Source: Phyllobates terribilis
Lineage: Eukaryota
DNA length: 64,000 bases
Direction: 5' to 3'
Assembly: GCF_046119375.1 (NCBI RefSeq)
Contig: NW_027362763.1
Location: 319,424,001 to 319,488,000, forward strand
The number at the start of each line of letters is the position of its first letter. Positions within the stretch are counted from its first letter, which is position 1. Shown in pieces: positions 225 to 43,276 of the stretch. A model generated the notes under the pieces. That model did not search any database and was not told where the DNA came from. It worked only from the letters and a program-made list of their open reading frames with translations. The translations under genes were made by a program, and so were the position numbers.

Positions 225-507
225 ACGCCAGTCAGTATGATGCCCCCACTCAGTATGATACCCCTACAGCCATCACTCAGTATGAAACCCCCACACAGTA
301 TTATTGTCCCTGAAACCCCCCACACAGTATGATGGCCCCTCAGTATGATGATCTCACAGTCCCCCACCTCACACAGTATCATGGTGTCCACAGCACACTA
401 CACAGTATGATTGCCCTCCAGTATGATGCTCTCACAGCCCTTCAGTATGATTTACCCACAGCCCCCACTCAGCTTGATGCCCCCACAGCCATGACTCAAA
501 ATGATAA
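225..507. repeat. Degenerate minisatellite (CCCCCACTCAGTATGATG-type units), left part, interrupted by the LTR element
   Basis: Recurrent CAGTATGATG / CCCCCACTCAG motifs; the same array resumes after 5452. Confidence 0.8.
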
Positions 508-1752
508 TGTAGCACCCTGAGGATTCGGCTGCTACAGGGGTATTGCACCTCAACCCAGAGGTGTGATATTCCACTCCCGGGTAAGGATGGAGTGTGGAAC
601 TGAGCTCAGTTAGCTGCATGCACTACACACATCCCATTTCCGAGGAACAGACCGATGGTACTCCCACTAGAGAAATGTGCAGGTACGACAGTGTCTGTTC
701 CTGGCTGGAGTGGGAGGGGGGTGGAACATCCCAGTAGTGTAGGGGCAGATAGGGGGAGCAGTCTGGGTAATGCTAGGAGCTCATTGGGTGCTGGTCACCT
801 GAGCTCACACATAGAGGGAGTATATAAGGTGGGAACCATCTTAGGACAGAGTCTTTGTAGAGTGAGTCAGTCTGTCAGAGTGTAACCTGAGGAGCAGAGC
901 AGACAAGCTCAGCCAGAAGGGCTGACAGGGAGTTGTGGTTCCGGCTGGGCCCAGCTCCAAGGCCAAGAGAGAGAGAGGAGTCTGAAGGACCCAGAGAAAA
1001 CAAGAGGGAACTCCAAGAACCCAAAATTAGATCAGAGGGTGAAGAGTTGGCACCTAGGGTACCGGATCCCAAGCTGGCAGAGAGAGAAAAGCACACCTTA
1101 GCCAGAGACCGGAGGTCGTGGGCAGGATCTGCCACGACCCTCACCAAATCCACCAGGAAGGCAGACCAAGTATAGGGTCAGGGAACCCAGAGGAGGTGTA
1201 CCCACCAAGAGACCCGAGGGAGCCGGACATAGGTGGATCCCTGGTGAGAACGGCCAGAAGAGAGGGAAAGTCAGACAGGAGCTCAGGACCACGCTCCAGA
1301 ACTGCCTGGGGGTTAGCCGAGTCCAGGACCTGGTGGACGCAGCACGGCTCGGGTGGTCACTTCAGGCCAGAGTGACCATAAGAACACCCGTAAGTAAAAC
1401 CCCTGAACTGCACAGCCCGACTCTGAGTCTTCTTGCTGATTCATCCTGCACCTTCACCACCACCATCCTCTACATCTGACCCCCTGAGGCTATACCCCTC
1501 CCGTTGGGGGTTATACTACCAAAGCTGCACACATACCAACAGCCTCAGCGGACCCTGCTGCAGCGGCGGCCTTTTGACCGCAAATCAACGGGTGGCGTAG
1601 TCGACACAAAGAACTCTAATAACATCTGTAGGACTGCCACACACTGAGTTTGACACCCTGGGCACGGACCGGGTCACAGCCACTCGGAGACTACAACCCC
1701 CATCTGATCCGGCTCCGGGTATCCCTAACAACATGGCCCAGGGGGCGCGTCA
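508..1752 (+). repeat. 5' LTR of copy 1 (1245 bp)
   Basis: Direct repeat of 4203-5448 with only a handful of visible differences; followed 4 nt later by the PBS. Confidence 0.95.
821..827 (+). promoter_or_regulatory. Putative LTR TATA box (TATATAA)
   Basis: Same motif at 4516-4522, 60516-60522 and 16081-16087, about 270-315 nt from each LTR 5' end. Confidence 0.6.
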
Positions 1753-1756
1753 ACTT

Positions 1757-1775
1757 TGGCGTAGTCGGCAGGATT
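1757..1775 (+). other. Primer-binding site complementary to the tRNA-Ser(AGA/TGA-type) 3' end
   Basis: TGGCGTAGTCGGCAGGATT is the reverse complement of AATCCTGCCGACTACG-CCA, the vertebrate tRNA-Ser 3' end as I recall it. Confidence 0.9.
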
Positions 1776-3424
1776 ACGTGCCCGCAACAACCGGGTACTG
1801 CGTGCCTGAAGAAAAGTTCATCGTTACCTCAAAAAGAAGTCTGCCGCCGGTTCCGGAGGGTCCCCGCCAACGGACCCCATCACAGGTCGTTTCCCGCCGG
1901 TTGTCCGCCATTTGCAGCTTTTTCCCGCCATCCATGGAGTTTCCCGCCACTGGGAGACGACTCCCGCCATTTCCAAGGATTTCCCGCCTTGGGAGAGCGG
2001 ACGCCATTATGGGCGTGCCAGAGGGTGGCAAGAGGCCACCTCCCATCGTGGGCCAGGTCGAAGAATGGCGCCAAAAGCGGAAACCGCGCCCACCAACAGA
2101 GACTGTGATGCTGGAAGTGTCCATCAGCGTAAGAGAACTGCCCCTGGAACTGACAATCACAAAGTTGCCCCGGGACCACCCTCAATGTGGGCGGAGACTG
2201 AACAAGAGAGCAAAGATGGGTGTCGCCTGGAGCAGTCTGGAGAGAGCGCACCCGGAGACAAGAAGTCTGGAGAGGAGTCCAGAGAGAGCCTACCCGGAGA
2301 TGGAGGGAGAGACAGGCAGCACCGACCCAGTGGTCAGGAGCCTGCTACAAGCCACAACTCCACTAGGCCTAGTGGAGGTCCTGGCACAGCTCCCCCGAGA
2401 CCGGGAGTGTGCACAGACTGCGCTGGAGGGCCTCGCACGGAGGATGGCCCGGGTGCAGCGAGAGACGTTGGCGGAGTGGAGCCGAGAGATGGCCCAGCAG
2501 ACCGAAACCCGACAGCGGAGCACGCCACCCGAGACGAGGAGACAGACCGCCTCTGAGGATGGTGCAGGAGGAGTGAAGGCCGGAGACGGCGCCGAGAAGG
2601 GAGCTGAACGGACGGAGGCAGGTAAAGGGGACGTCTCTACCCCGAGCCAAGAAACCGTGTACCTGTCCCAGCTCCCCGTCGCAGAGCCCGAAATTCCCCC
2701 TGCCGTGCCCGTCGCTGCATCGTCACCGTGCCGGACTAGGCCTCAAGTAGAAGCCGCGGCCGCGACCCCTGTGACGTCACACGCCTCGACCCTGAGCGCG
2801 ACCAAACAGGAAATACCACCGGCCTGGTCGCAAGGCCTAGTACCCCCGGGCGCCGCTATTCCAACAGCGCCCCCTACCTCCGCGGAGCCACCAGCCTGGT
2901 CGCAGGGCTGAGTAACCCAGGGCGCCGCCGTTCTTACGGTGCCCTTTGCCTTTAAGGTGCCCCAGGCCTGGTCGCAAGGCCTGGTTAACCCGGGCGCCGC
3001 TACCATCAACGCGCCCTCAACATCTAGAGTGCCGCACCTGGGTGAAAATCTATTCGCCCAGCATACGTGCCCGGATGGGCAGCCCTTCATATGGCCCCAG
3101 GAGTACATTCAGCTGGAACTCCAGAGAGCAAGGCCCATGTGCGAGCCCCTGATTCCGGCTCCGAAGCCCGTAAAGAGGACCTCGCCCCCGCTGGAGGAGG
3201 CACAGTTCGAGTGGGACCCCACTGGAGAAGACCTCATGGGGTTCACTCAGGAGACTCGGGCGGCCGCAGCGGAGCGTGCAGAGTGCTGCCGCCAGCAGCT
3301 CGAGGTCTTCGAGAGGGAGCGGAGAGAGAGGCGGGTCCGGGAACAGCAAATGCAGATAAGGAGCGCGGAGCAGAAGAGCCGGACCAGGAGGAAACCCCGT
3401 GCAGCTCATGGTCCCCCTTCCACC

Positions 3425-3631
3425 GGGACTGTGATAAAATTCAACATGCAGCATGGGTGGGGCTTCATTAGAGACCATCATACCCCCGGCGACGTCTTTG
3501 TGACCCGCAGAGACGTAGAAATCCATCTGCCGGAGGGACACAGAGGTCGTGACCTGTATGTAGGGGACGAGGTCACCTTCACCCGGCACAAGTGTGCCAA
3601 AGGACCCTACGCCCTCCATGTGCATCGCCTG
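3425..3631 (+). other. Cold-shock domain (Y-box/CSD-like), copy 1
   Basis: GTVIKFNMQHGWGFI...GDVFVT...LYVGDEVTFT...KGPYALHV aligns to YBX GTVKWFNVRNGYGFI...EDVFVH...VGDGETVEF...KGAEAANV, including RNP1 and RNP2. Confidence 0.9.
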
Positions 3632-4193
3632 ACGGAGGAGGAGCTGCGGTGTGAGGAGGAGCAAGAGGGCCCGGACGGGTCTGAAACTGAAACCAACCAA
3701 CAAGAAAGAGCAGGAGGACGCCGTCGTTGAAGTACGGTAGAGAGAGACTGTACATAGTTACCCGTCAGGGTATAAGAACTGTTCTAGTTAAAATATAGTC
3801 CCCGTTGGGACCAGCAGATTGAACTGAAACCCGTGTGTCCCTATTCCCACTGACCGAGGACTGAGAGCGGTCAATCCTCCCTAATACCTGGCCGAGGACT
3901 GAGAGCGGCCATATTTCCCTTGTATATAGTTGCGCTTCCTAAAGCGCCCCCTACTGGTTTTATAGGAAACTGTTTTTCTTGAAGAGACTGTTGCACTTTA
4001 CCCGGTCACAAGTTGCACCGTGACCGGAGGAACCAGAGACAGGAATGTTTACAAGAATGTTATTTATGAAAACGTTTTATTGCTGATGATATATATGATG
4101 TTTTATATGTTTATATGTTGATGTTTATGAAAAATAATTGTATGTTTTGGATGTTTTTATCTTTAACAGCCCGAGGACGTGCTGTGATTTACC

Positions 4194-4202
4194 AGGGGGG
4201 AA
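4194..4202 (+). other. Polypurine tract (AGGGGGGAA)
   Basis: Immediately 5' of the 3' LTR; identical at 63919-63927. Confidence 0.8.
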
Positions 4203-5448
4203 TGTAGCACCCTGAGGATTCGGCTGCTACAGGGGTATTGCACCTCAACCCAGAGGTGTGATATTCCACTCCCGGGTAAGGATGGAGTGTGGAACTGAGC
4301 TCAGTTAGCTGCATGCACTACACACATCCCATTTCCGAGGAACAGACCGATGGTACTCCCACTAGAGAAATGTGCAGGTACGACAGTGTCTGTTCCTGGC
4401 TGGAGTGGGAGGGGGGTGGAACATCCCAGTAGTGTAGGGGCAGATAGGGGGAGCAGTCTGGGTAATGCTAGGAGCTCATTGGGTGCTGGTCACCTGAGCT
4501 CTCACATAGAGGGAGTATATAAGGTGGGAACCATCTTAGGACAGAGTCTTTGTAGAGTGAGTCAGTCTGTCAGAGTGTAACCTGAGGAGCAGAGCAGAGA
4601 AGCTCAGCCAGAAGGGCTGACAGGGAGTTGTGGTTCCGGCTGGGCCCAGCTCCAAGGCCAAGAGAGAGAGAGGAGTCTGAAGGACCCAGAGAAAACAAGA
4701 GGGAACTCCAAGAACCCAAAATTAGATCAGAGGGTGAAGAGTTGGCACCTAGGGTACCGGATCCCAAGCTGGCAGAGAGAGAAAAGCACACCTTAGCCAG
4801 AGACCGGAGGTCGTGGGCAGGATCTGCCACGACCCTCACCAAATCCACCAGGAAGGCAGACCAAGTATAGTGTCAGGGAACCCAGAGGAGGTGTACCCAC
4901 CAAGAGACCCGAGGGAGCCGGACATAGGTGGATCCCTGGTGAAAACGGCCAGAAGAGAGGGAAAGTCAGACAGGAGCTCAGGACCACGCTCCAGAACTGC
5001 CTGGGGGTTAGCCGAGTCCAGGACCTGGTGGACGCAGCACGGCTCGGGTGGTCACTTCAGGCCAGAGTGACCATAAGAACACCCGTAAGTAAAAACCCCT
5101 GAACTGCACAGCCCGACTCTGAGTCTTCTTGCTGATTCATCCTGCACCTTCACCACCACCATCCTCTACATCTGACCCCCTGAGGCTATACCCCTCCCGT
5201 TGGGGGTTATACTACCAAAGCTGCACACATACCAACAGCCTCAGCGGACCCTGCTGCAGCGGCGGCCTTTTGACCGCAAATCAACGGGTGGCGTAGTCGA
5301 CACAAAGAACTCTAATAACATCTGTAGGACTGCCACACACTGAGTTTGACACCCTGGGCACGGACCGGGTCACAGCCACTCGGAGACTACAACCCCCATC
5401 TGATCCGGCTCCGGGTATCCCTAACAACATGGCCCAGGGGGCACGTCA
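4203..5448 (+). repeat. 3' LTR of copy 1 (1246 bp)
   Basis: Direct repeat of 508-1752; ends GCACGTCA, followed by TSD ATAA. Confidence 0.95.
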
Positions 5449-5452
5449 ATAA

Positions 5453-6040
5453 TCCTTCAGAGTATGATGGCCCCTCAGTCTGATGCTTCCATAACCCCCA
5501 CTCAGTATGATCACCCCCTCTGTATAACAATACCTTCCACAGCCACGCAGTATTATGATCCCCACAGCGCCCAACAAAATATGATTGCCCCTAAACATGT
5601 TCACTCAACCTCTTACTCAGTATAATGCCCCCCATTCAATATAATGGCACCCAATGCCAGCCCCACACTCATTATGATGGCCAGACCCCCGCTCAGTATG
5701 ATGACCCCCAATTCCAATCACTTACTTTGTATGATGGCCCCTACAGCCTGTCCCCACTCAGTATGATGGACCCCAATGCAAGCCCCCCACTCAGTATGAT
5801 GGCCCCTAATTCCAGCCCCCATTCAGTATGATGGTGCCTACAGCCAGCCCTCTACTTAGTATGATGGCCCCCATATCCAGCCCCCATTCATTATGATGGA
5901 CCTCAATGCCAGCCCCCACTTAGTATGATGACCCCAAATGACAGTCCCACACTCAGTATGGTGGACCCACAGCTGGTGTACCCATAGCCCCCCACTCAGT
6001 ATGATGTCCCCCACTCATTATGATATCTCCACAGTATGAG
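5453..6040. repeat. Degenerate minisatellite (CCCCCACTCAGTATGATG-type), right part
   Basis: Same motif family as 225-507. Confidence 0.8.
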
Positions 6041-15808: not shown

Positions 15809-17050
15809 TGTGGCGCCCCTGAGGGTTCAGTCGCCACAGAGGTACTGCACCTCACCCAGAGGTGTGGTATCCCCTTCTCTCAGGTAAGGAGGGAGTGCTG
15901 CCCGGAACCCCAACACCTGCATCCAACACTACACTGCTCCAGGCCGGCTGGAAGGGCAAGATGCAATGTATGTTCCTGCTGAGCGCTGTCCCTGGCTGGA
16001 GTGGGGGGAACCAAAGGTAGGGGGAACCAGTAGTGGGTGTGGGTGGAGGAGGCAGTTTGAGGGAGCACTATAGAGTGAGGTATATAAAGGGAAGCCATCT
16101 TAGGGTGGCAGTTCAGTGATTAGTAAGGTGGAGCACAGTCAGGGAGCAGAGTCTCAGTAGGAGCTCTGCTCCACAAGTAGGGCCCAGTCCTAGAGGCCCA
16201 GGAGGGGAGCAGGGAGTAGGCTCCATTTTGTTGAAGGGATCCTAGAGGGTACGGCGAGTGCAGGAAGGCACTCGTATGCACCGCATCTGTCAGAAGACAG
16301 AGGGACCGTAGGCCGCAAGAAGGGGACCGGCCCCTGGCCCAGGCGTGTACTTCAAGTCTCGGCTGGAAAAACCGGAGGCTTCTGGCTTATATAGTCAGTT
16401 GCCGAAGCTGCATTCTAATCCCCAGGAGGGTCAAGCAGGTCCGGGAACTCCGACGGACAGGAGGGACTTCAGAGCACCTGAGTGGGATTGAGAGTGGGCA
16501 GCGCAGGGCAGGAGGGAGAAAGACCCAGCGTGAAGTCGGTCTAGCTAGGAACACGAGAAAGTGGGGTTCTGTCAGGTACTCCTGATTTACCTGAGGAAGT
16601 GCTGAACCCCTGCCTGGTGAACGCAGCGCGACGTGGGAGGCTAGCACCTGTACAGTGCACCAGTGGAACTGCAATAAGAACTGTGACTAAAGACTCGGAT
16701 GACTGCACCGTACTGCCTCCATCCATTCTTTATCTGCGCCACCCTTCCCTCACCGCACTAGAACGCCCAGCGCAACCACCATCTCATTACACTGCCCTGG
16801 AGCTAGCTCTACCTGTGGAGAGCCACACCATCCCTGCTGCCGTAACACCAGCTCCAGAGGACTGCTCCGCAGCGGCGGCTCCCTCTAGCCGCAATCCACA
16901 GGTGGCATCATGAACACTTTCCAAATCCCCTAGAAATTATCCCCCCTTTTACTGACCGCACTGGGTCACGGACCGGGCCAGCTACCGTGATATCCCCCTA
17001 GCAACTAGAGGCCCGGCTGCCGAGTACCCCACGGCCATGGGGGCACGTCA
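15809..17050 (+). mobile_element. Solo LTR of a divergent subfamily related to the CSD element (1242 bp)
   Basis: Starts TGTGGCGCCCCTGAGG...GGTACTGCACCTCACCCAGAGGTG (homologous to the 508 LTR); ends GCACGTCA; TSD CAAA at 15805-15808 and 17051-17054. Confidence 0.9.
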
Positions 17051-17373
17051 CAAACAATAGCGCAAAAATGAAAATTGTCTGCCGATGGACAATTTATTCT
17101 CTTTTCTCAGCTCTATGTTGAAGGAAGTCTCCTTTCTCTGCATGAATCATTTCCCTCTTCAACTCCAGACCCAGCTACTCTGCTCCTTTTTCCGGCCAGG
17201 GATTTTTGCAGCGATTCATGACTTGTGCAGAGAAAATTGACCTCCTGTTTCTACATAGAGCTTAGAAGGATTCAGGTAAGTCAGTTTTTAATCATGTGAT
17301 GTTATAGACCTAATAGAAAAGAGAAGAATTAGCTGGATAGAAAGGCAAAATGAGCAATTGTAAGTACACAGTG

Positions 17374-17937
17374 CAACCTGGCACTCAGAAGACTCATGGG
17401 TTCTTTTAGTGATTTTTAATAAAGTAATGTAGTAATGTAGTAAATAACAAATAAACAGATGTTTCGGTCACAATAGACCTTCATCGGTGTACGGTTTTAT
17501 TAAAGGCGAGATGCATTTGGGCCGCTGTCTGTAGAAATTTGTAGCATGTCCTGGACAAACGGTGGATACCGCGTCCTGCGTCCTTTACAATACAGCATAA
17601 AACTTCCTACCGGGCTACTGCCTCTGGTTATTCATTTTCTTCTACGGCTTACGGCACCGACCAGGCCATTACCTTTAAGTACCTACCGCAAGCAACGGTT
17701 TACAAATTTCTACAGACAGCGGCCCAAATGCATCTCGCCTTTAATAAAATCGTACACCGATGAAGGTCTATTGTGACCGAAACGTCTGTTTATTTGTTAT
17801 TTACTACATTACTTTATTAAAAATCACTAAAAGAACCCATGAGTCTTCTGAGTGCCAGGTTGTTTTTCTGTATCTATACGGGCTTGTAACCCTACCTGGG
17901 CACCACCACCACTCCAGGAGTGCGGTAGTTTCTATTT
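17374..17937 (+). mobile_element. Penelope-like pseudo-LTR remnant with an inverted arm
   Basis: Near-perfect inverted arms 17374-17543 and 17701-17862, each with a minimal hammerhead-like core; no ORF. Confidence 0.65.
17754..17789 (+). ncRNA. Minimal type I hammerhead-like motif (CCGAUGA variant core); inverted copy at ~17455-17491
   Basis: ACA-CCGATGA-AGGTC(TATTGT)GACC-GAAAC-GTC-TGT; stem II GGTC/GACC, stem I ACA/TGT, loopless stem III. Confidence 0.6.
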
Positions 17938-18471
17938 TGCAATATATTAAGAGGATAAAAATTTTGATGGGAGGAGTGCTTCTTTAATGTAGCTTTCTAC
18001 TTGAGAACGGTTCAGTGACTTACACAGATACAGCAACATGCAACTACAACAGGCTTTACTTAGCATGAGGCAAAATTACAACCTTGCATCATGGGTACAA
18101 TCCTCGCAATTACACACTGTATTGTGGCACAGTGCTTGGCTGTTACAAAGCAAAAATATGGTATAGTGCTTGATGGTTACACTGCAAAGTTGAGTCAATG
18201 AGCTTGGCTGTTACTCATAAAACTGAGGTTCAGAGCCTAGAGTTTACCAATATGGTTCACAACTAGCAGAAGCTGGTCACCAATAGCAATATATACAATC
18301 TTTTGGATCAGTACTCAGTGCAACTCACTTGACACAAGTCACAGTGCAGCTAATCAACGCAATCTTAGCTTACATGGAAAAAGTCACCAGTTACTCCACT
18401 GGTGGAAGGAGACATATTAAGGAAAGAGGTGGTTCAGTATTCTTCGGAGCCTCACCTCCACCCCCCCTTAA

Positions 18472-18976
18472 AGGGAACCTGCCACCAGAAATAATGCTAT
18501 AAACCTGTAGATAAGAGGTTAATCTATAGGTTAATAGCGTTATTATGCTGCCCGGCGTCTAAACATGGCCGAATGCAGCAGGGAAAAAATTTAATTTATT
18601 CTCCCCGCCAGAATTCGAGTTCAGTCATGTGGGTGGAGGCACCGCTGGTTCAGTCACGGCTCTGAGAATACAGAGTGGTAGCTGTAACCGAGTCCCCAGC
18701 CCTGACTGATACTGGCTCTGCATAGGGGCTCAGCTGCCAGTCAGAGCCAGGGGCGCAGTTACAGCCTCCATTCTGTATTCTCAGAGCCGTGACTAAACCA
18801 GCGGCGCCCCTGCCACCATGACTGAAACCGAATGCTGGCGGGGAGAATAAAGTTAATTTTCTCCCTGCTGCATTTGGCTGCATGCCGGCACCGGGCAGCA
18901 TAATAACGCTATTAACATGCAGATTAACCACATATCTGCAAGTTAACAGCGTTATTTTCCTGGTGACAGGTTCCCT
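18472..18976. mobile_element. TTAA MITE (T2/Kolobok type)
   Basis: TIR AGGGAACCTG(C/T)CACCAG; TTAA at 18468-18471 and 18977-18980. Confidence 0.85.
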
Positions 18977-20019
18977 TTAAAAACAGGAAAGCTTAAGAGA
19001 AGAGTGGTTTAAACAAGGTTAAAGGGGGATTTGGAAAGTTAAAGTAAAATAAAAATGGGGAGCTTGTATTTGAGTTACCATACAGTTATAATTGCATGCT
19101 TACAGTGCATAAATGGGCAATTAAAAGCTGTACATAGAAAAAGAATCATGATGTTGATATCGACTCAGACTAACCCTAACAATACGATGACAGCACATGA
19201 CTAGTCTGTGGAAAGAATTTTGATCAAATCAAAATCATGTCCTAAATTTTATATTTAGACTATTTTAAATGAAGTCTCTAATATTTGCTCCTATGTATGT
19301 CTCCAGTGTTGGAGTCTTACAGATATCTTGTGACACCTCTTAAAGAAAAGCAGTAAATAGGGCAGAGGGTGAGAGAGAGCGTGTAGAGCCCTTTACAAGA
19401 ATCCTGAGAACGTTTCCAGTTACATGACCAGCGCCTAAGCGACACGCACGCACGTTGCTCCCAGCAGATGCCTGCTGCTCACATATCTGACACTGTAACT
19501 TAAAACCTGCCACTGTGCCCTTTCTGACCGATACATGTGGCAGCACTTTAATCCCACGCTGGTGTGACAGCACAGTGTCAGAAAAAGTGCCAACCTCTGC
19601 ACATTTTCATGGGACACCTGCAGAGTAATATTATCTTAAGGTTTGGATAGTCAACACTATCTACAGAATGTCTTGAGTCAGGATGCCCCAACACTACACT
19701 ATGGTTAGCATTTCAGATTGTGTTGGCGCTCTGCCATCTTTCGTACTATAGAGCACCAGGCATTAACTCTCTTCTTTCTAAGAGCAAATCACTGCAGAAG
19801 CAGTAGGCAAGAAAAGCCTGGATATTGTATGTACAGTTATAAACATATAGCCATAACAAACATGATAAAAACAGCTAGAAGTTTTTGGTTCCTTGAATTT
19901 TGCGCACGGGGCAAATGATTTGCTTTGTCTCCTAAATCATGAATGCAAAAAAGTGTGCAAAATGATTTGTAAAGCATGAACTTTGCCTAGGTTCTTAGCA
20001 TGGTCCTTTGTTACCTTTA

Positions 20020-21945
20020 GGCTGCGTGCCCACTATGCGTTTTTCAAGCGTTTTTGCCGCGGAATTTCCGCAGCGAAAACGCTTAAAAAACGCTTGGTAA
20101 TACGTGCCCCATGGTCCCCAATGATAATCTGCATGTGCTGTTGACTCGCCCCCTGGGCCGTGGGGCACCCGGAACCGGGCTTCTGTGCAATGCTGGGGCT
20201 AGCAGCGGCAACCCGATCCCGTGGCTCAGGGTGGTCAGACCAAATGCTGTGGCACTCTATTTATAGATTTGGGAATGTCTGACTACGCCACCCGTGGATT
20301 GCGGTCAGAGATAACTGCTGCTGCGAGGCAGACCAATGAGGCTGGTGTTGGTGTGCAGCACAGGGGTAGGACAACTCTCCACGGGAAGAGTGTAGCCTCA
20401 GGGCAGTGTAGGTGAATGCTGGGGGTGATAGTGCAGGCCGCAATAGTAAGAGTTCAGAGTCCGCTTCAAACAGTCCAGGGTCTTTATTGCAGATGTAATT
20501 ACTGACCCGACATGAGTACCGGTTAGGAATGGGCCTGGGCATCTGAGAGCATTCGGGCGAGCCCCACTGGTCAGGGTGAGTGTGTAGGCCTACCGTTCTC
20601 CCTCTATGCTCTTGCTGACTATCCACCTTTTCGTGGTGTAATAGCCCACGTCCCTGAGCTGGCCGTGTACTTTGCCTGTATGGCTTGCGACTCGGGCCTT
20701 GGGTACCTTTTGCTTCTCCTTGCTGTACTGGTCCCTCTGTGTGGCGGAGCCTCCAGGCTTCTTAGGCCAAGGGACCTGAAATCCCTCGCGGGTTGGTTCT
20801 CTGCTGCTGGGCTTGCAACCCTGACAGCCTCGGACCCCAATGTCCGGTTGTGTGCTTCTCTCAGCCAGGACCGGCTCTCGTCGCCTCTGTCCCTAGCTCG
20901 CAGTCTCTCCTCTGCCTCACGGACTCCTCAGCTGCTGCTGACCTGTCCCTCTTCTCTGAGAACCCTTCTGGACACTTCAGAAGTGGGTTCTGGTCCCTCT
21001 AACCCTGCCCCAGTTCCAGCTTTTATAGGGGCAGCCTGCTCCCCCTACTGGCCTGGGACAGGAGGTGCTGCATGCTAATGGTTCCTGACCAGGGAACCTC
21101 CCTCCTGCTCTCAGACACAGCCTTTAATATTTGTGGCATCCAGGCCTGGGGTGACACACTGTGCACATGCTGCAGAAATTTCCGCTGCGGATTATCATTG
21201 TGGAAAAATACGCAGCATGTCCATTAATTTTGCGGACACGCAGTGTAATCGCCGCTATTGACTTGCATTGGACCGCGTGACATCGGCATCACTGCATCTG
21301 CACAAGCGGATATCACACGGTTTAATGTGCGGATGGTACCCAGGTCTGGAGGAGAGGTGACTCTCTTCCAGACCTGGGTACCATGGAAACTGTAAAAAAA
21401 ATAATTTAAAATAAAAAATAAAGATTATACTTACCTTCCGATGTCCTCCCGGTGTTTTCTCCCCTCCGTCTGGTCTGCTGTATGGGTCGCGTTGTTGTGA
21501 AGGACCTGCCATGATGTCATTGAGTCATGTGACCTGTCACATGACTCAATGACGTCACCGCAGGTCCTTCACACCACCGCGAGCCACCCAAGACACCGGA
21601 CGCAGCAGAGAAAACACCAGGAGGACATCGGAAGGTAAGTATAATCTTTTTTTTTTATTTTTTACCATTCTTATTCTTTTTTTTTAACTAACTTGGTCAC
21701 ACTACTTTAAATCCATGTCGGTTGCATGGATTTATATAGTGTGAACAAGTTGTCAAGTACTTTTCCAAGTTATGCTAAAATCGCTTGGAAAAGCGCTTGC
21801 TAACCCGCATGCAGAAATGCATGCAAAAACGCTTGACAAACGCTTCTACCTGGCAGGAAAAACGCATGTAAAATCAGCATGCGTTTTTCCTGCCAGGGAG
21901 AAGCGGAAAAAATATGCAGCATTTCTGCATCGTTGGCACACAGCC
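20020..21945. mobile_element. PIF/Harbinger-type non-autonomous element (Tourist-like) with a nested solo LTR
   Basis: TIRs GGCTGCGTGCCCAC / GTTGGCACACAGCC; 3-bp TSD TTA on both sides; internal hairpins at ~21337-21385 and 21516-21556. Confidence 0.8.
20142..21158 (-). mobile_element. Solo LTR, third divergent subfamily of the CSD-element lineage (1017 bp)
   Basis: Minus strand runs TGTGTCACCCC...CCACGGCCCAGGGGGCGAGTCA; TSD CTGT at 20138-20141 and 21159-21162; shares the GACCGCA..ACGGGTGGCGTAGTC block. Confidence 0.85.
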
Positions 21946-22503
21946 TTAGACTTTGTCAGAAATGCAAGCACCAAAACTGCTGCTACCACAGTGCAGGAGT
22001 CAGTCAAGAAAGTCAAATATCTGAGGGTATGTGCCCACGATCAGGAGCTGCTGCAGCCCCAATGCTGCAGAATAGCTGCACCACTTCCGCCCTCATTATG
22101 CAAATGAGCAGCGGCAATTTTTTTTTTCACATGCGGACTTTCCTCATTGATGCAAGTCTTTTGGGAAAGTCCACATGCAGACCCGCAAGAGAAAGTGACA
22201 TGTGGTCCTGAAGGATGCGCCACTTGTCAGTTTCTGCGGGCGACCCACAGGTGCACAGAAACGCATAGAGTACATGGGATTTCTAGAAATCCCATCCACT
22301 ATGTTGTAACATCTGGATGCTGTGGGATGATGCTACACAAACCTGCAGCATTTCTTGATTGTGGTCACATACCTTAAGTCTCTAAAAATTTTCTGAAAAA
22401 TTATACAACTTGAATACTTGACATTTAAAGGGAGGCAATTTGTCTGAAATGATACTCACAAATATAAAATGTAATGAAATTAAATTAAAAAAAATTAGAT
22501 TAA

Positions 22504-22817
22504 AGGGGTTATTTGGCCTTAGGGTACAAGTCTGCAGTCACTCTATGTGACGACAGACTTGTGAATCTTCACCGCACTTGCAATTCGCACTGTGACTGTG
22601 AGGATTCTCTGGTGCCAGTGCCAGGATTGGGTGGTCATGTGACAGCAAGTATGCAAGTTGCATACTTCCAGACACATTCCAAGTAGATGTGTCAGGCCTC
22701 ACTCAATACTCGAGCACATTTATTCGACATTTGACCGCGCTGGCACCAGAGAATCCTCACAGCGCGAACACTGCGTAGAGTGACTGCAGACTTGTACCCT
22801 AAGGCCAGACAACCCCT
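22504..22817. mobile_element. TTAA MITE (T2 type)
   Basis: Long TIR AGGGGTT..TGGCCTTAGGGTACAAGTCTGCAGTCACTCTA; TTAA flanks. Confidence 0.85.
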
Positions 22818-24303
22818 TTAAAATGTTTTTCATTATTTGTTTAAAACAGGGATGCTCAACCTGCTGCCCACGGGCCACATGGGGCTCATGATGCCATTCT
22901 GTGTGGCCTCCAGATGTCTCTGGCACCCCCCATGTTTGTGACTCCTCCCTGTTCATTACTTTAGAGAGGAAGAGGTGATTTTGCATAAATGTGGTTCTCT
23001 ATTGTAATTTCAAAGATGTGAAATGCTTAGTTTCTCCTAAACTGCAAGCGATGATAGCTACTCTGTTACCACTTTGGCTTCTTTTTTTCTGTAGTGCTAT
23101 AAAGGAGGTCAGAGGACCAAATTAGATATTTATGGCATATACAGTACTATCAATAATACCTTCAGAAGGAAATTACCAAGAAGGTTCATGAGATAGGGAA
23201 TATATTCCTAATTTCTGGTTGTCTGACCACTGGGACCCCCACAGATCCTGAGAAGTGGGGCCCTGAAGATCCCTGCGTGAGTTGAGTAGAGGTCAATCCT
23301 GTGCACTGCCCCTCTATTCAGTCTTATGGAAGTGCCGGAGATCAGGCAAGTGCAGCAACATTAAGAATGAATGGTGCAGAGGTGAGCATGATTGATCACA
23401 GCTCCATTCACATGAGGCTTTTCAGAGCCCTGGCTCTCGGGATTGGTGGGAGTCCCAGCATTCGGACTCTGAGTGATCGGGAAGTCATCCCCTATCCAAT
23501 GGATAAGGGGTAACTTCCAAACTTGAGAAAACCCTTTAAACTTTGATACAGCTCTTTTTTTTTGGTACAATCTAAAAATGTAGCTCTTATATTAAAAATG
23601 TTATGCACCCCTGGTCTAAAACTGGCAAAATGCCAGGGTTTAATTTCTACAATTAACATACAAACATAAATAATTACTTATTCTATCGGCAACAGAAAGC
23701 ATCTCTGCATTATTATCTATATTTTTACTAGTAATGGAAAAAATCTTGTTGGTGACCGAAAAGCCCAGCAGTTCCCCGCACAATGGTGACAAGTAGCGGC
23801 ATAAGAGTAATTACTATAAATTATAATATAATTAATTTATTTAGTAAAAAATATCACTAGATTAGAATACATAGTTAGAGCGTGTGAGGCGCAGAACATA
23901 AAGTACAAGCTATTTACTGTCTTAACCTTAGAAAGCCTTAATTAGTTCAGTATAAAATAGGAAATGTCCGAGCCAGCATTACAAATCCAGTAGTAACCAA
24001 TATGATGCCACCCACACACAGATGAAATATTAAACTCACAGACACCAGAGGGTCACACGTCAAATAGAATATAAGGGTTGCAAAGTCACCGGGAAGTGAC
24101 ACATCTGTGACCTTTTAAAAGTCACTGTATCTCCGGCTGCTAAAGATAGTCCCAAAATTAGACTGCATCAAATGAAATGAATATTACTGATAGGGCCAAT
24201 AAGAAAGCACACTACGCCATGTTTGCAAATCTCATACTTTAGTCATTGAAAAATGGGTCTAAGTTATTGTTTTAGATGACGTGTATTACAGAAGATCCCT
24301 TAC

Positions 24304-24420
24304 CATGTTCTGTTTAAACAGTGCACCTATCTGCAGGAGTTCTAATGCAATCAATGATCTAAGTTTAGCACAAGTAAAGGTGTGTTCATGGGAACACTCT
24401 CTTCCTGATACTCTTGCAGT
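24304..24420 (-). CDS. Candidate internal exon of an unidentified host gene (TARVSGRECSHEHTFTCAKLRSLIALELLQIGALFKQNM)
   Basis: Acceptor GTTTATTTAG and donor GTAAGG; 117 nt open in phase 0-0; non-repetitive sequence. Confidence 0.4.
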
Positions 24421-24682
24421 CTAAATAAACTGGCAATCACCTGATGCACGACCAAAATGCCCAGGTGAAATCTTTAGGTCTGCAAACAAGTTTGATCACT
24501 CAGAGTTTGATCAGAGTGTGAGCATGGTGTGATCCGATTTTCTCGGATGTGAAGAATATGGGAAAAAAAATTTCTTCATCTTCTCCATTCTATCAGTCCG
24601 TGAAAATCAGATGTCATTCGCGGTGCACATCTTCAGGCAGGGAGCTTCCTGAAGCTACCCTGCCGGCAACGCAAAGTGGTAG

Positions 24683-25883
24683 TGACACACTCCCTGGGCC
24701 GTGGGGTACTCGGTGCAGGGCCGGTCGTTGCTAGGGGAGATGTCACAGTGGCGATGACCCGGTCCGTGACCAAGGGCGGTCAATCCAAAGGGGAATTATT
24801 TACAGGGGATTTATAGTTTTTATATAATGTTCGTGACGCCACCTGTGGTATGCGGCTATATGGAGCTGCCGCTGCGGTGCAGATCCTCTGGAGCTGGTGT
24901 GAATGAAGCAGAGTTGGTTTAGCTCTCCACAGGTAGAGATTAGCTCCAGGGCAGTGTAGATGTTGCTGTGTAGTGCAGGGGGTGATTACACAGCAATAAC
25001 TTCACAGAGACAGTGGGGTGCAGTCTTCAGAGTTTACTCACAGCTGTTAAGTTCCTCGGGTAGCACTGTCCAGCTTACAGCCTCCTACGTCGTGCTGCGT
25101 TCACCAGGCAGGGGTTCAGCAAACTCCCAGGTGTTTCAAGAGTGCCTGACAGGACCCCGTTCTATATGACCTTCTCAGCCGTCTTCCTGCACTGGCTCTC
25201 ACCCTTCTTGCCCTGCGCCTCGCCAAACAATGTCCCAAGCCAGTATCCTCGGATCTTTCTTGGCAACCTGGAGTTCCCAGGATCCTACGTGGTTACCCTT
25301 TTGGCGACTTGAGTGAGGACGTGGCAACTGCACCCTGAAAGTACAGAAACCTCCGGTTTCCAGTTGAACCTTGTAATTCTCACTGGTCAGGGGCCGGTCC
25401 CCTCTGCGGCTCGATTCCTCCACCGCCTGGCAGATACGGCCTCCAGCACTGCCCGTACCCCTGGGATCCCTTTCACTTTCCTGGAGCCTCTCTCCTGCTC
25501 CTCTCTCCTTCTCAGTCTTGGGCCTTTCTCTCAGGCCCTCCTCCTGAGCAGAGCTCCTGCTCCCCTCAAACTCTACTGACTGACTCGCTTTTCTTTCCAC
25601 GAAGGTTCCCTCTTTTATATCACTTCTAACAAGTGCTCCCCTGATCTACGTCCCACACCCACTACATGGTTCCCCCTCTCTTGGTTCCCCCCACTCCAAC
25701 CAGGGTCAGGGCTCAGCAGGAAGCGCGACACATCTTGCCCCTCCAGCTGGTCTGGAGTAGTGTAGTGTTGGATGCAGGTGTTAGGGTCCCGGGCAGCACT
25801 CTATCCTTACCTGAGAGTGAGATACAACATCTCTGGGTAAGATGCAGTACCTCTGTGGCGACCGAACCCTCAGGGGCGCCACA
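24683..25883 (-). mobile_element. Solo LTR related to 15809-17050 (1201 bp)
   Basis: Minus strand starts TGTGGCGCCCCTGAGGGTTCGGTCGCCACA and ends GTGTGTCA; TSD GTAG at 24679-24682 and 25884-25887. Confidence 0.9.
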
Positions 25884-26039
25884 GTAGCGCAGCTCCAGGG
25901 GAGCTCTCGTCGCCTCTTCTGACACGTGCCTGTGTGATGTCATTGTGCTAGTGCCAGCATGTACGCGCTGGTCACAAGAAGAAGTGGAGTCCAGGGGCCT
26001 GAAGCAGAGTGCTGGGGGAAAGGAAGCAAGGTGGGTATA

Positions 26040-27664
26040 CAGTACAGACCAAAAGTTTGGACACACCTTCTCATTTAAAGATTTTTCTGTATTTTCTTGA
26101 CTATGAAAATTGTACATTCATACTGAAGGCATCAAAACTATGAATTAACACATGTGGAATTATACTTAACAAAAAAGTGTGAAACAACTGAAAATATGTC
26201 TTATATTCTAGGTTCTTCAAAGTAGCCACCTTTTGCTTTTATGACTGCTTTGCACACTCTTGGCATTCTCTTGATGAGCTTCAAGAGGTAGTCACCGGAA
26301 ATGGTCTTCCAACAATCTTGAAGGAGTTCCCAGAGATGCTTAGCACTTGTTGGCCCTTTTGCCTTCACTCTGCGGTCCAGCTCACCCCAAACCATCTTGA
26401 TTGGGTTCAGGTCTGGTGACTGTGGAGGCCAGGTCATCTGGTGTAGCACCCCATCACTCTCCCTCTTGGTCAAATAGCCCGTACACAGCCTGGAGGTGTG
26501 TTTGGGGTCATTGTCCTGTTGAAAAATAAATGATGGTCCAACTAAACGCAAACCGGATGGAATAGCATGCCGCTGCAAGATGCTGTGGTAGCCATGCTGG
26601 TTCAGTATGCCTTCAATTTTGAATAAATCCCCAACAGTGTCACCAGCAAAGCACCCCCACACCATCAAACCTCCTCCTCCATGCTTCACGGTGGGAACCA
26701 GGCATGTAGAGTCCATCCGTTCACCTTTTCTGCGTCGCACAACGACACGGTGGTTGGAAGCAAAGATCTCAAATTTGGACTCATCAGACCAAAGCTCAGA
26801 TTTCCACTGGTCTAATGTCCATTCCTTGTGTTCTTTAGCCCAAACAAGTCTCTTCTGCTTGTTGCCTGTCCTTAGAAGGTTTCCTAGCAGCTATTTTACC
26901 ATGAAGGCCTGCTGCACAAAGTCTCCTCTTAACAGTTGTTGAAGAGATGTGTCTGCCGCTAGAACTCTGTGTGGCATTGACCTGGTCTCTAATCTGAGCT
27001 GCTGTTAACCTGCGATTTCTGAGGCTGGTGACTCGGATAAACTTATCCTCAGAAGCAGAGGTGACTCTTGGTCTTCCTTTTCTGGGTCGGTCCTCATGTG
27101 ACCCAGTTTCTTTGTGGCGCTTGATGGTTTTTGCAACTGCACTTGGGACACTTTCAAAGTTTGCCCAATTTTTCGCACTGACTGACCTTCATTTCTTAAA
27201 GTAATGATGGCCACTCGTTTTTCTTTACTTAGCTGCTTTTTTCTTGCCATAATACAAATTCTATCAGTCTATTCAGTAGGACTATCAGCTGTGTATCCAC
27301 CAGACTTCTGCACAACACAACTGATGGTCCCAACCCCATTTATAAGGCAAGAAATCCCACTTATTAAACCTGACAGGGCACACCTGTGAAGTGAAAACCA
27401 TTTCCGGTGACTACCTCTTGAAGTTCATCAAGAGAATGCCAAGAGTGTGCAAAGCAGTCATCAAAGCAAAAGGTGGCTACTTTGAAGAACCAAGAATATA
27501 AGACATATTTTCAGTTGTTTCACACTTTTTTGTTAAGTATATAATTCCACATGTGTTAATTCATAGTTTTGATGCCTTCAGTGTGAATGTACAATTTTCA
27601 TAGTCATGAAAATACAGAAAAATCTTTAAATGAGAAGGTGGGTCCAAACTTTTGGTCTGTACTG
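26040..27664 (-). mobile_element. Tc1-like transposon with DD38E spacing (Intruder type), full length, defective
   Basis: ~265-bp TIRs starting CAGTACAGACCAAAAGTTTGGAC that include the last transposase codons; TA flanks. Confidence 0.95.
26201..27250 (-). pseudogene. DD38E transposase, frameshifted, catalytic E replaced by K
   Basis: MARKKQLSKEKR...; SDESKF; QQDNDPKH-38 aa-(E>K)MVW; fragments 27005-27250 and 26201-26740. Confidence 0.9.
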
Positions 27665-27935
27665 TATGTGTTTTCTTTTTAATATGTGTATGAGATGTGC
27701 GCCTGTATTGGGGATCATGCTGTATATAAGAGCTATGTGGGGCCTCATACTGTATATAGGGGGTATGTGGGGTTCATACTATATATAGAATGCTGTGAGG
27801 GCTCATCCTGTATGTAGGGAGCTATGTGGGGGCTTACACTGTATTTAGGGAGCTATATGGGAGGTCACACTGTATATAAGAGCTATGTGGGGGTTTACAC
27901 TGTATATAGGGAGCTATGTGCGGGCTCATACTGTA

Positions 27936-29584
27936 CAGTTATATGAAAAAGTTTGGGCACCCCTATTAATCTTAAGCTTAATGTTTTATAAAAATTGGTG
28001 TTTTTGCAACAGCTATTTCAGTTTGATATATGTAATAACTGTTGGAGACCGTAATGTTTCTGCCTTGAAATGAGGTTTATTGTACTAACAGAAAATGTGC
28101 AATCTGCATTCAAACAAAATTTGACAGGTGCCTAAGTATGGGCACCTCACCAGAAAAGTGACATTAATATTTAGTAGATCCTCCTTTTGCAAAAATAACA
28201 GCCTCTAGTTGCTTCCTGTAGCTTTTAATGATTTCCTGGATCCTGGATGAAGGTATTTTTGACCATTCCTCTTTACAAAACAATTCCAGTTCAGTTAAGT
28301 TTGATGGTCGCCGAGCATGGACAGTCCTCTTCAAATGATCCCACAGATGTTCTATGATATTCAGGTCTGGGGACTGGGATGGCCATTCCAGAACATTGTA
28401 ATTGTTCCTCTGCATGAATGCCTGAGTAGATTTGGAGCGGTGTTTTGGATCATTGTCTTGCTGAAAGATCCATCCCCTGCGTAACTTCAACTTTGTCACT
28501 GATTCTTGAACATTATTGTCAAGAATCTGCTGATACTGAGTGAAATCCATGCGTTCCTCAACTTTAACAAGATTCCCGGTGCCGGCATTGGCCACACAGC
28601 CCCAAAGCATGATGGAACCTCCACCAAATTTTACTGTGGGTAGCAAGTGTTTTTCTTGGAATGCTGTGTTTTTTTGCCGCCATGCATAACGCCTTTTTGT
28701 ATGACCAAACAACTCAATCTTGGTTTCATCAGTCCACAGGACCTTCTTCCAAAAAGAAATTGGCTTCTCCAAATGTGCTTTTGCATACCTCAGCCGACTC
28801 TGTTTGTGGCGTGCTTGCAGAAACGGCCTCTTTCGCATCACTCTCCCATACAGCTTCTCCTTGTGCAAAGTGCGTTGTATAGTTGACCGATGCACAGTGA
28901 CACCATCTGCAACAAGTTGATGCGCAGCTCTCTGGAGGTGGTCTGAGGATTCTCCTTGACTGATCTCACCATTCTTCTTCTCTGCCTTTCTGATGTTTTT
29001 CTTGGCCTGCCACTTCTGGCCTTAACAAAATCTGTCCCTGTGTTCTTCCATTTCCTTACTATGTTCCTCACAGTGGAAACTGACAGGTTAAATCTCTGAG
29101 ACAGCTTTTTGTATCCTTCCCCTGAGCAACTATGTTGAATAATCTTTGTTTTCAGATCATTTGACAGTTGTTTTGAGGAGCCCATGATGCCACTCTTCAG
29201 AGGAGATTCAAACAGGAGAACAACTTGCAAGTGGCCACTTTAAGTAGCTTTTCTCATGATTGCATACACCAGGCTATGAAGTTCAAAGCTCAATGAGGTT
29301 ACAAAGCCAAAAAAAGTGCTTTAGTAAGTCAGTAAAAAGTAGGTAGGAGTATTTAAAACAAGAAAATGATAAGGGTGCCCATACTTATGCACCTGTCAAA
29401 TTTTGTTTGAATGCAGATTGCACATTTTCTGTTAGTACAATAAACCTCATTTCAAGGCAGAAACATTACTGTGTTCAACAGTTATTACATATATCAAACT
29501 GAAATAGCTGTTGCAAAAACACCAATTTTTATAAAACATTAAGCTTAAGATTAATAGGGGTGCCCAAACTTTTTCATATGACTG
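27936..29584 (-). mobile_element. Tc1 transposon (DD34E), full length
   Basis: ~210-bp TIRs starting CAGT(T/C)ATATGAAAAAGTTTGGGCACCCC; TA flanks within the minisatellite. Confidence 0.95.
28164..29185 (-). pseudogene. Tc1 DD34E transposase with one frameshift near 28920
   Basis: MGSSKQLSNDLK...GRPRK; WTDETK; QQDNDPKH-34 aa-EHLW. Confidence 0.92.
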
Positions 29585-31076: not shown

Positions 31077-32539
31077 CTATGTGGGACCGCATACTGTATA
31101 TAGGGGGCTATGTGGGGCTCATACTGTATATAGGAAGCTATGTAGGGGCTCATACTGTATATAGGATACTATGTGATGGCTTATACTGTATATAGGATAC
31201 TATGTGATGGCTCATACGGTATATAGAAAGGACATATGAGGGCTCAGACTGTATATAGGGAGCTATGTGGGGCTTACGCTGTATTTAGGCAGCTATGTGG
31301 GGGCTCATACTGTATCTAGGGAACTATGTGGGGGCTCATACTGTATCTAGGGAACTATGTGGGAGCTCACACTACATATATGAGATATGTGGGGGCTCAT
31401 GCTGTATATAGAGAGCTATGTGGGGGTTGATACTGTGATCACAGCAGCAGCAGCAGTTCCCCAAACCCTGTTCCAGTCCCCTCTAATCCCCACTCTGAAT
31501 TTAATTTTTGGCACACTTTTTTTGCGTTTTTTTTCGTGTGTGGGGTGTCCTGCGTTGAGCATTCGTGCTTTTCCCATGGCCGCAGCGCTCTAATAAGTAT
31601 TGCTGCTGATCAGAGTCTGCACCAAGGAACTTTTTCTATTTTTAGTTAGAGTAGTGGACGTCACAATGTAAGTGACGTCTGATATTTTTTTCGAAAAAAA
31701 AAATAATGGTAGTTAGTACAGAGTAGTTTTATAGGTAAGGAGTTAACGCATTAGAGAAGCGGACGTCACAGTGTTTGGTGACGTTCAGTTTTGTTGTAGA
31801 GGAAAATAAATTGTACAGAGTAGTTTTATAGGTAGTGAGGTAGCGTATTAGAGTAGCGGACGTCACTGTGTTAGTGACGTACGATTTTCTTTTACTAAAG
31901 AAAAATCATAGTTAGTACAGAGTAGCCTTATAGTTAGGGAGGTAGCGTTTTTCTTTCGTATACATTTTTTTTTTACCTCCGGGTAATTTCTTAACTAGTG
32001 CATTAGGGGAGTGGACGTCGCATTGTTAGTGACGTTCGTTTTTCTTTGGCAAAAAAAGAATTGTTTGCATCTAATAAATTTTTAGCGAGTGTATTAGGTG
32101 AGCATATGTTGCAGTGTTGGCGACATCCGTTTTTCTTTTGCAAAAAAAAAAAATATTTGTGTTGAGTAAATTTTAAGCGAGTGCATTAGGGGAGCGTATG
32201 TCGCATTGTTAGTGACGTCCGTTTTTCTTTTGTAAAAAATATAATTGTTTGTGCCAAGTAAATTTTTAGCTAGTGCATTAGGGGAGCGTATGTCGCAGTG
32301 TTGGTGACGTCCAGTGATCTTTTGCAAAAAAAAAAAAGTATACAAACTGTTTTTTACATCTGATTTTTCTTTTCATTTTTTCTTCCAAGTGTTTCTTCTA
32401 AATTTTTCCTTTTTACTTTTTTTTTCTCTACTTTTTTTCTCTCTACTTTTATAGTACCCCTTACACAAGCCCCACACAAAACATAGGTAAAAGCACCACT
32501 TGCACACACATCCCCCATGTTTTGAAAAACAAAATAAAA

Positions 32540-42070: not shown

Positions 42071-42150
42071 CCGTCACACGGAACACATATAAGTTTGCTC
42101 CAAATTCAGTCATTTGTAGTGAGTGTTGAAGATATTTTCCTCCATTTAAA

Positions 42151-43276
42151 ATGAGCAAGGCACGTGGCAAGGGACGGGGAACTGGACGTGATGGTGATGG
42201 TGCATTCAGAGGCCGAGGCCGTGGGCAAGCTGAAATTGTGCCACAACAAACACCCACATCTTCTCGCTCGACCTTCCTGTCCCAATTAATAGGGGACTGC
42301 AGAACACCACTATTGAACACAGAGCAGTGTGAAAAGGTTATTGGTTGGATAGCAGATAATGCTTCCAGTCACTTAGCCACCACCACCACCTTGTCTTCCA
42401 CACGGTCAAGTCTCAGTAGCTGTGAGTCTGGACCGCATATTCCTCACCCTGAACCTCCTTCCTTCCACCATTCCGAGTGCTCGAAGACAACTGTTCCCAC
42501 ACTTGGACACTCCGAAGAGCTATTCACTTTTCCATTTATAGATTCGGGCCTCTAGCCCGGTTCAGTTGAAGCGGGGCAAGAGGAGATCGCATGTAGTGAT
42601 GCCCAAATATTTGAGCAGCCACGGTCACACGAAGGCAATGGTAGGAAAGTGTCACAAGAGGTGGACGATGATGAGACACAATTGCCAGAAAGTCAGGAGG
42701 AGGACCAGAGTGCGGAAGTGGAAGACGAGGTGGTGGATGATATAGTAACTAACCCAACCTGGCAGGAGGACATGCAGAGCGACAAGAGCAGCACACAGGG
42801 GGAGGGAGGCAGAGCACCCCAACAGGCAGGAAGTAGCAGTGTGGTGGCCGCAGAAAGAAGGTAGGCAACCGTTCCCCCCACTGTCAAAGTTCTGGGAGCA
42901 TTTTGTCAGCCCCTCCCATCGCACAAGCCCTGAGGCGCGGGGTACTCTCACAAGGAGTGCAAAGTTTGGGAAGATGCTGAGGGAGTACCTAGCCAACCGT
43001 ACCAACATCCTCCGTGATTCCTCTGTGCCTTATAATTATTGGGTATCCAAGGTGGATACGTGGAATGAACTGGCTCTCTACGCCTTTGAGGTCCTGGCCT
43101 GCCCTGCCGCCAGCATTTTATCAGAGCGGGTTTTTAGTGCCGCTGGTGGAATTATAACTGATAAGCGCACCCGCCTGTCAACTGAAAATTCTGACAGGCT
43201 GACTCTTATAAAAATGAACAAGGGCTGGATTGGGCCAGACTTCTCAACACCACTGAATGATAGCAGCGTAACATAA
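42151..43276 (+). pseudogene. hAT transposase, internally deleted (acidic N-terminus fused to the C-terminal dimerisation domain)
   Basis: ...YWVSKVDTWNELALYAFEVLACPAASILSERVFSAAGGIITDKRTRLSTEN matches the hATC motif. Confidence 0.88.

Follow-up and report, generated by a model that had tools for sequence, protein, structure and literature searches.

Non-autonomous long terminal repeat (LTR) retrotransposons that still encode a protein have been described in plants and animals. TR-GAG elements and wheat RLG_Quinta are Gag-only non-autonomous elements (PMC13570524, PMC11302176). Zebrafish Bhikhari (Bik-2) and Xenopus 1a11, xretpos and lambda-olt 2-1 are vertebrate LTR elements without pol, and Bik-2 and 1a11 have one open reading frame (ORF) each (PMC12067270, PMC4585706). 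A cold-shock domain (CSD) was captured, in several captures, by 46 bird endogenous retroviruses (ERVs), and the authors suggest that it possibly aids proliferation (PMC12287698). Here we analyze a 64,000-bp stretch of the Phyllobates terribilis genome (assembly GCF_046119375.1, contig NW_027362763.1, positions 319,424,001 to 319,488,000; hereafter the window), which contains two copies of an LTR element whose sole ORF ends in a CSD.

The reading that we favor, with moderate confidence, is that the CSD forms the C-terminal part of the sole protein of a high-copy non-autonomous LTR family, which relies on gag-pol Gypsy elements in the same genome and whose protein would escort or protect RNA in a cis-preferential manner. 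It is highly probable that the ORF protein is of some use to the element. Elements of the TRIM (terminal-repeat retrotransposon in miniature) and LARD (large retrotransposon derivative) classes are defined by a non-coding internal region; the frog element differs from both in having a ∼600-residue ORF under constraint. It resembles TR-GAG and Quinta in the absence of reverse transcriptase (RT) and integrase, the intact ORF, the cis regions common with an autonomous Gypsy partner and the recombining subfamilies. In those elements the ORF is Gag (in Quinta together with a domain of unknown function), whereas the frog ORF has no detectable Gag homology and shows neither the capsid nor the zinc knuckle of the TR-GAG, Quinta or Bhikhari type. 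Bhikhari and 1a11 encode Gag or Gag-like proteins and have tens to hundreds of copies, in contrast to more than 10,000 copies and a CSD in the frog family. A CSD between LTRs is not new, because bird ERVs captured such domains (PMC12287698). The bird elements are retroviruses classified by RT, and their CSDs are near-canonical (E values of 1e-25 and 1e-23 in two rows of Supplementary Table 6). Compared with these, the frog domain is strongly diverged (E value ∼1e-8) and is part of a Gypsy satellite that has no other gene.

LTR elements that are non-autonomous but coding are a known kind, and the non-Gag ORF with a CSD is what differs. In the literature on CSDs with retroelements or frogs we found no description of the family; repeat libraries and subscription journals lie outside that scope, and an entry may exist in a repeat library. 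By term search, the CSD is also unmentioned in the main text of three poison-frog genome papers and in a short review of accessory domains.

Purifying selection on the ORF

The initial annotation compared the CSD of copy 1 (3425–3631) with that of copy 2 (63184–63390) and proposed strong purifying selection. Its counts were exact: 36 of the 69 codons are identical, 26 differ only synonymously and 7 are replacements (copy 1/copy 2: M/A, R/K, H/R, H/N, P/M, I/S and R/K). By the NG86 method, dN is 0.072 and dS is 1.21, giving an omega of 0.06. Third positions hold 30 of the 41 base differences (binomial p ∼6e-11 against neutrality). Both domains score above the cut-off of Pfam CSD PF00313 (36.6 bits for copy 1 and 35.2 bits for copy 2; cut-off 27).

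Other parts of that description needed correction. The sequence was said to diverge directly after the domain, but 7 more identical residues and ∼10 alignable ones follow. The C-termini are unrelated only over the last 16 and 8 residues; the ∼17 residues before them align. Nor is constraint peculiar to the CSD, as the segment 3146–3295 also has an omega of 0.06 and four conserved blocks occur in the ∼600-residue protein. The entire ORF is homologous between the copies, with 437 of 565 aligned residues identical.

The comparison was then extended to many copies. A positional sample was formed from the first 30 LTR-PBS (primer-binding site) junctions by position, which lie in the first 10.6 Mb of one contig, at one chromosome end, and are non-random. 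It contains 21 CSD-class copies, 8 gag elements and 1 that is neither. The selection set consisted of the 17 CSD-bearing copies of this sample plus the two window copies, with identical sequences collapsed and one copy (L199) omitted from four 5′ regions. Omega for the CSD was 0.049 over 18 distinct sequences, and fixing it at 1 (kappa 3) cost 167 log units. Under codon models, omega along the ORF was 0.51 for residues 1–70, 0.20 for 137–200, 0.13 for 410–460, 0.15 for 461–507 and 0.14 for 577–592, with 0.74 and 0.44 in the linkers. This 15-fold range runs in step with predicted structure. The constraint acts on the protein and extends past the CSD. Pairwise pN/pS bins over 75 CSDs (0.07–0.39) were set aside in favor of the positional sample, because many of those loci had been chosen by protein identity or hidden Markov model score.

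Changes common to several copies were 73 synonymous to 23 non-synonymous, compared with 11 to 12 for singletons (Fisher p 0.011). The pattern is that of selection along replicating lineages and decay after insertion. Among the 17 CSD-bearing copies, 13 have an uninterrupted frame from the start to the end of the CSD, three have stops at different codons and the last is not in frame with the usual start. The stop in copy 1 was found at none of 53 matching sites at other loci. LTR pairs of the CSD-bearing positional copies are 99.0–100% identical (two over partial lengths; without L189).

Two checks addressed constraints other than on the protein. A stop-free antisense frame overlaps the CSD, but its omega is 4.2, so other frames do not explain the pattern. 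Another antisense frame has a low omega (0.095); it uses the third positions of the sense frame and contains 2 and 3 stops in the two copies. Third-position divergence peaks in the CSD (0.33). Because the CSD third positions are the most divergent among the six regions compared, an RNA-level constraint is not the cause.

Structure of the element

Copies 1 and 2 are 4.9-kb LTR elements with LTRs of ∼1.2 kb and a 2.5-kb internal region containing one ORF. Paired TG...CA LTRs, a target-site duplication, a PBS and a polypurine tract (PPT) identify them as LTR retrotransposons. Their features, in window positions, are:

504–507, repeated at 5449–5452 (+): copy 1 target-site duplication, 4 bp
508–1752 (+): copy 1 5′ LTR (TGT...TCA), 1245 bp; 5 mismatches and 1 gap compared with the 3′ LTR
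1757–1774 (+): copy 1 PBS
1778–1798 (+): 7-bp stem with 7-nt loop just 3′ of the copy 1 PBS; also in gag-pol elements
2009–3730 (+): copy 1 ORF from the conserved start Met; in-frame stop at 2909–2911
3425–3631 (+): copy 1 CSD, by codon comparison and Pfam
4194–4202 (+): copy 1 PPT
4203–5448 (+): copy 1 3′ LTR, 1246 bp
60203–61403 (+): copy 2 5′ LTR; 100% identical to its own 3′ LTR over 1202 columns; insertion in a TA repeat
61121–61610 (+): LTR 3′ part, PBS and leader common to gag-pol Gypsy elements, ∼70–73% identity
61408–61425 (+): copy 2 PBS
61663–63468 (+): copy 2 open ORF of 601 aa, largely disordered; no match to Gag or Pol detected
62155–62247 (+): copy 2 predicted helix, residues 165–195; predicted local distance difference test (pLDDT) score ∼55–72; block 137–200 has omega 0.20
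63016–63150 (+): copy 2 predicted charged helix of 45 residues (452–496); pLDDT 75–90; block 461–507 has omega 0.15
63184–63390 (+): copy 2 CSD, by codon comparison, Pfam and structure model
63919–63927 (+): copy 2 PPT
63928–64000 (+): copy 2 3′ LTR, first part; extends past the window end

The conserved start Met lies ∼250 nt downstream of the PBS. It was taken as the start because upstream stops or shifts occur in otherwise open copies and the Met is common to distant subfamilies. In the full-length model (mean pLDDT 47) the protein is disordered except for the helix 165–195, the long helix 452–496 and the C-terminal CSD. The CSD is the only significant Pfam match, and the element has no RT, RNase H or integrase, as expected of a non-autonomous element. 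No similarity of the ORF to Gag or Pol was detected by Pfam, PDB profile search or viral fold search, and profile-profile comparison with seven helper Gags gave no match (probability 0.1%). We therefore rejected a Gag origin of the ORF. The ESM Atlas had no match for residues 1–240, and the C-terminal part matched only generic CSD clusters below 0.9.

Four-bp duplications were readable at 16 of 22 loci. The primer may be tRNA-Ser, with by-eye support from extended copies; ARAGORN and Rfam did not confirm it. At two loci (L113 and L114, ∼1498–1560) the PBS is continued by more tRNA-like sequence, as if the primer had been copied beyond the usual stop, and ARAGORN and Rfam made no call on these extensions. 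Each LTR contains part of the PBS sequence once more, ∼160–175 bp before its 3′ end (window 1593, 5289 and 61230). This partial copy matches the PBS type of the family and is also present in helper LTRs. The post-PBS stem occurs in 44 of 60 loci with 12 different loops, a raw count not set against shuffled sequence, and is a candidate packaging or dimerisation hairpin. Taken whole, the leader RNA shows no unusual stability (z +1.45). Copy 1 sits within a minisatellite of ∼22–33-bp units (window 228–500 and 5460–6040).

Fold and putative binding face of the CSD

An AlphaFold model of the CSD (22-sequence alignment) had a pLDDT of 86.8, and its best matches were CspA, YBX1 and YBX2 (31–36% identity; TM score to target 0.76–0.88). 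The predicted five-stranded barrel and the PF00313 score together place the domain in the cold-shock domain superfamily. Like bacterial CspA and YBX1/YBX2, it has the five-stranded fold and keeps the equivalents of F74 and F85. It differs from them in its C-terminal position, in the loss of the W65 and H87 equivalents and in an identity that is about equal to both groups. With these two residues lost and 31–32% identity to YBX1, it falls outside the Y-box proteins. Bacterial and Y-box domains score alike against the family CSD and do not separate as donor.

The binding face of YBX1 uses W65, F74, F85 and H87 (PMC7498358). Aligned with YBX1, both window copies have W changed to K and H to T, as the initial annotation had stated. 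We surveyed 75 family CSDs (91 found, 16 duplicates dropped), which were partly selected by score. The F74 and F85 equivalents are invariant (75/75), whereas the canonical W is kept in one domain and the H in none. The W position holds K in 70 and R in 4, and the H position holds T in 60 and N in 12. The RNP1 Tyr is replaced by Trp in 74 domains, and 70 have a Tyr near strand 5. In relatives from other frogs the W position is occupied by A, S or D; altogether, K, R, A, S and D replace W, and T, N, A, S and K replace H. Many unrelated natural CSDs likewise do not have the canonical W. A shifted binding specificity, at which the initial annotation hinted, is unproven. Because the face is basic and offers fewer residues for stacking, binding may be less sequence-specific.

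Retrocopies of host CSDE1 were considered as donor of the CSD and rejected, since they score less than 3 bits against the family profile. Intronless, broken CSD retrocopies, presumably CSDE1-like, lie next to a long interspersed element (LINE) fragment (L031–L036, G000:C1:734.44 Mb). A divergent CSD ORF that retains the RNP2 histidine was found elsewhere (L078, 3724–4623, minus strand; G000:C4:791520005-791520241). It has three close relatives within ∼36 kb (100, 69 and 58% identity); identity is 36–45% for the remaining 147 of the 150 scored matches. A search for named homologs of it found none, and it is possibly an older family relative or part of a local gene cluster.

Abundance, subfamilies and range

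In the 10.57-Gb genome, an exact 23-nt motif of the CSD was counted 12,913 times and the exact junction of LTR end and PBS 31,987 times. A CSD query gave 37,131 candidates at first look, a figure that should not be read as a copy number. Scaling the positional sample gives ∼22,000 CSD-class copies (95% interval 16,000–27,000), or ∼1% of the genome. In that sample they outnumber gag elements ∼2.6:1. These thousands of dispersed copies with mobile structure are not a domesticated single-copy host gene.

There are many subfamilies. Among the older ones, LTR identity falls as low as 81% and another PBS type occurs. Third-position distances among them reach 0.55, and the layout PBS-leader-ORF-PPT is constant in the full CSD elements read. 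Synonymous divergence between copies 1 and 2 rises from ∼0.2 at the 5′ end of the ORF to more than 1.2 near the CSD, and distance matrices of element regions correlate only moderately (rho 0.49–0.86). The subfamilies look like recombinant mosaics. Tandem arrays were also seen, with elements at ∼3.7-kb spacing and deleted forms at ∼3.1 kb (G000:C3:12924682-12932286 and others).

Seven of 150 database matches were looked up. Five are close single-domain relatives, from Phyllobates terribilis (95% identity) and from Ranitomeya variabilis, R. imitator and Anomaloglossus baeobatrachus (43–51%); the other two are proteins of a dinoflagellate and of a metagenome. The only further matches from a profile search were more models of Phyllobates and Ranitomeya, together with generic proteins that have several CSDs. 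Named relatives were seen only in dendrobatoid frogs (four species, known from proteins and not from their genomic context). Absence outside dendrobatoids does not follow, because masked repeats are rarely annotated. Some Phyllobates terribilis and Ranitomeya imitator gene models (P0151, P0152, P0155 and P0157) fuse the family CSD with R3HCC1, a UVS.2-like protease and others; they are either annotation artefacts or exonisation.

Gag-pol Gypsy elements as likely helpers

Four of the eight gag loci of the positional sample were extended. All four contain pol, their LTR pairs are 99.1–99.7% identical, and none has a CSD ORF. The pol frame is uninterrupted at two loci (1363 and 1361 aa), is 1246 aa at another and is split into two frames at the fourth. 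A Pfam scan found a CCHC knuckle in one gag and the order protease, RT, RNase H, integrase in one pol, as in Ty3/Gypsy elements. They have 510–630 bp in common with the CSD element at ∼70% identity, a region that runs from the final third of the LTR through the PBS into ∼200 nt of leader. An autonomous partner with common cis signals is therefore present, and this gag-pol Gypsy family is the likely helper that would mobilize the CSD elements. At twelve older gag loci, no CSD was found in ORFs of at least 200 aa. PNMA-type gag elements were rejected as helper, as their 30 loci share no DNA with the CSD element.

Copies without the CSD

Two of the junctions at which the CSD has been deleted, with 276 and 66 exact copies, were sampled, and flanks were read for 22 of these 342 copies. 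Twelve copies of the 276-copy junction, which links two short homologous stretches ∼600 bp apart, had 10 left and 9 right flank types. Ten copies of the 66-copy junction had 4 left and 8 right flank types. At both junctions the flanks match different full-length subfamilies. Because the flanks are of mixed subfamilies, we read the deletions as repeated template switches and not as one amplified lineage. CSD-less copies arise repeatedly at short homologies in many subfamilies, and no one lineage stands out as expanded, in agreement with a cis-preferential role.

Proposed mechanism and alternatives

In the reading that we favor, element RNA would be transcribed in the germ line and then translated. 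High Gypsy expression has been reported in ova of Oophaga pumilio (PMC6278860), which makes germ-line activity plausible by analogy, although those data are not about the CSD family. Contigs from four runs of uncertain type span the stretch and carry no information about transcription. The new protein would bind chiefly its own encoding RNA, through the CSD and the preceding charged helix, and the helices may allow oligomerisation or partner contact. It would shield the RNA or escort it into helper particles, and helper RT and integrase would then produce a new copy. Among RNA stability, delivery to Gag and reverse-transcription chaperoning, escort or protection of the RNA is our preferred pick for the step served. 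Since most of the benefit would go to the RNA that encodes the protein, amino-acid changes would be purged along replicating lineages, and stops and deletions found near the tips. A broader proposal, which we offer tentatively, is a satellite class that has replaced gag-pol with its own non-Gag RNA-binding adaptor, the CSD protein winning its encoding RNA a place in helper particles. The initial annotation thought the protein probably needed for the propagation of both subfamilies. Protein-level purifying selection holds in the larger set (omega 0.049); a role of the protein in the propagation of the element itself is our best reading of it, and the subfamilies are many rather than two.

Several observations weigh against this reading. 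Four of the 21 CSD-class copies have no CSD, and three CSD-deletion junctions account for 276 + 66 + 31 = 373 exact copies, the 31-copy junction being mostly on small contigs. Three of the ten copies read at the 66-copy junction have the same left flank, and some onward copying without the CSD, in small clades, is possible. Dead-end behavior need not reflect loss of the protein, because the deletions also remove RNA. RNA binding may be weak, because the domain has lost two of the four main aromatics with which YBX1 binds. We infer both expression and binding of the element protein, and the helper role is drawn only from common sequence and similar LTR ages. The positional sample covers one chromosome end and is not a random draw.

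The alternative that survives best, though we consider it unlikely, is a diffusible anti-silencing or messenger ribonucleoprotein-remodelling factor that, for example, competes with host Y-box proteins or small-RNA machinery. Selection would persist because the few copies expressed per germ cell return the benefit to the encoding lineage, and one-copy-per-cell expression has been offered as a route to LTR cis-preference (PMC13558583). CSD-less copies at hundreds of loci agree with such a factor, as does a mostly disordered, scaffold-like protein with short conserved blocks. However, free sharing among more than 10,000 near-identical young copies should favor shorter non-coding derivatives, and the two sampled deletion junctions show many origins and no dominant clade.

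It is improbable that the ORF is an accessory gene of an unseen autonomous element, the non-autonomous copies being repeated deletion products that inherit the signal. No CSD ORF was seen at any of the 16 gag-bearing loci, one layout recurs across distant subfamilies in every full CSD element read, and the ORF begins where gag would be expected, ∼250 nt past the PBS. What keeps this alternative in view is that the gag-bearing loci read at length were only 4 young and 12 older ones, of thousands, and that bird ERVs carry CSDs (PMC12287698).

Co-option by the host in oocyte or embryo, with selection at the level of the frog, is very improbable, although with zebrafish Bhikhari there is an earlier case of a host that uses the protein of an active element (PMC12067270) and the family spans four dendrobatoid species. 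The signal sits on changes common to dispersed, freshly inserted copies, singletons are far less constrained, copies decay after insertion, and thousands of redundant loci would be hard for host-level selection to police. Hardly credible is a non-protein constraint (a mere open frame for RNA stability, an overlapping frame or RNA structure), which the stop-free antisense frame over the CSD in both copies might suggest and which that frame's omega of 4.2, the freest third positions in the CSD and the 15-fold variation of omega with predicted structure largely refute.

Significance

Non-autonomous elements normally retain cis signals or Gag alone. That an unrelated protein of RNA-binding type is held at an omega of 0.05 implies that the RNA encoding it gains privately, and the family offers a natural test of LTR cis-preference, which has been described as unsettled (PMC13558583). 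If our reading is true, a satellite with its own adaptor outnumbers its helper, fills ∼1% of a 10-Gb genome and persists across dendrobatoid frogs. The family CSD is also a natural variant without two canonical aromatics.

Homology-based annotation would miss this family, because it has no RT. Studies of poison frogs have reported much repeat sequence as unclassified, with 62.6% of reads in one (PMC12208295) and 66,046 LTR elements matching ‘Unknown’ in another (10.1101/2023.11.06.565769). The family probably contaminates gene models with CSD exons.

Other features of the window

Three LTRs of older subfamilies within the same clade lie at 15809–17050 (+), 20142–21165 (−) and 24683–25883 (−) and are 87–92% identical to other loci. 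No PBS follows them, and they are probably solo LTRs. ORFs in 26201–29239, 32402–36600, 42130–43276, 49603–50076, 53182–54063 and 56712–59946 presumably encode proteins that resemble Tc1/mariner, piggyBac-like and hAT transposases.
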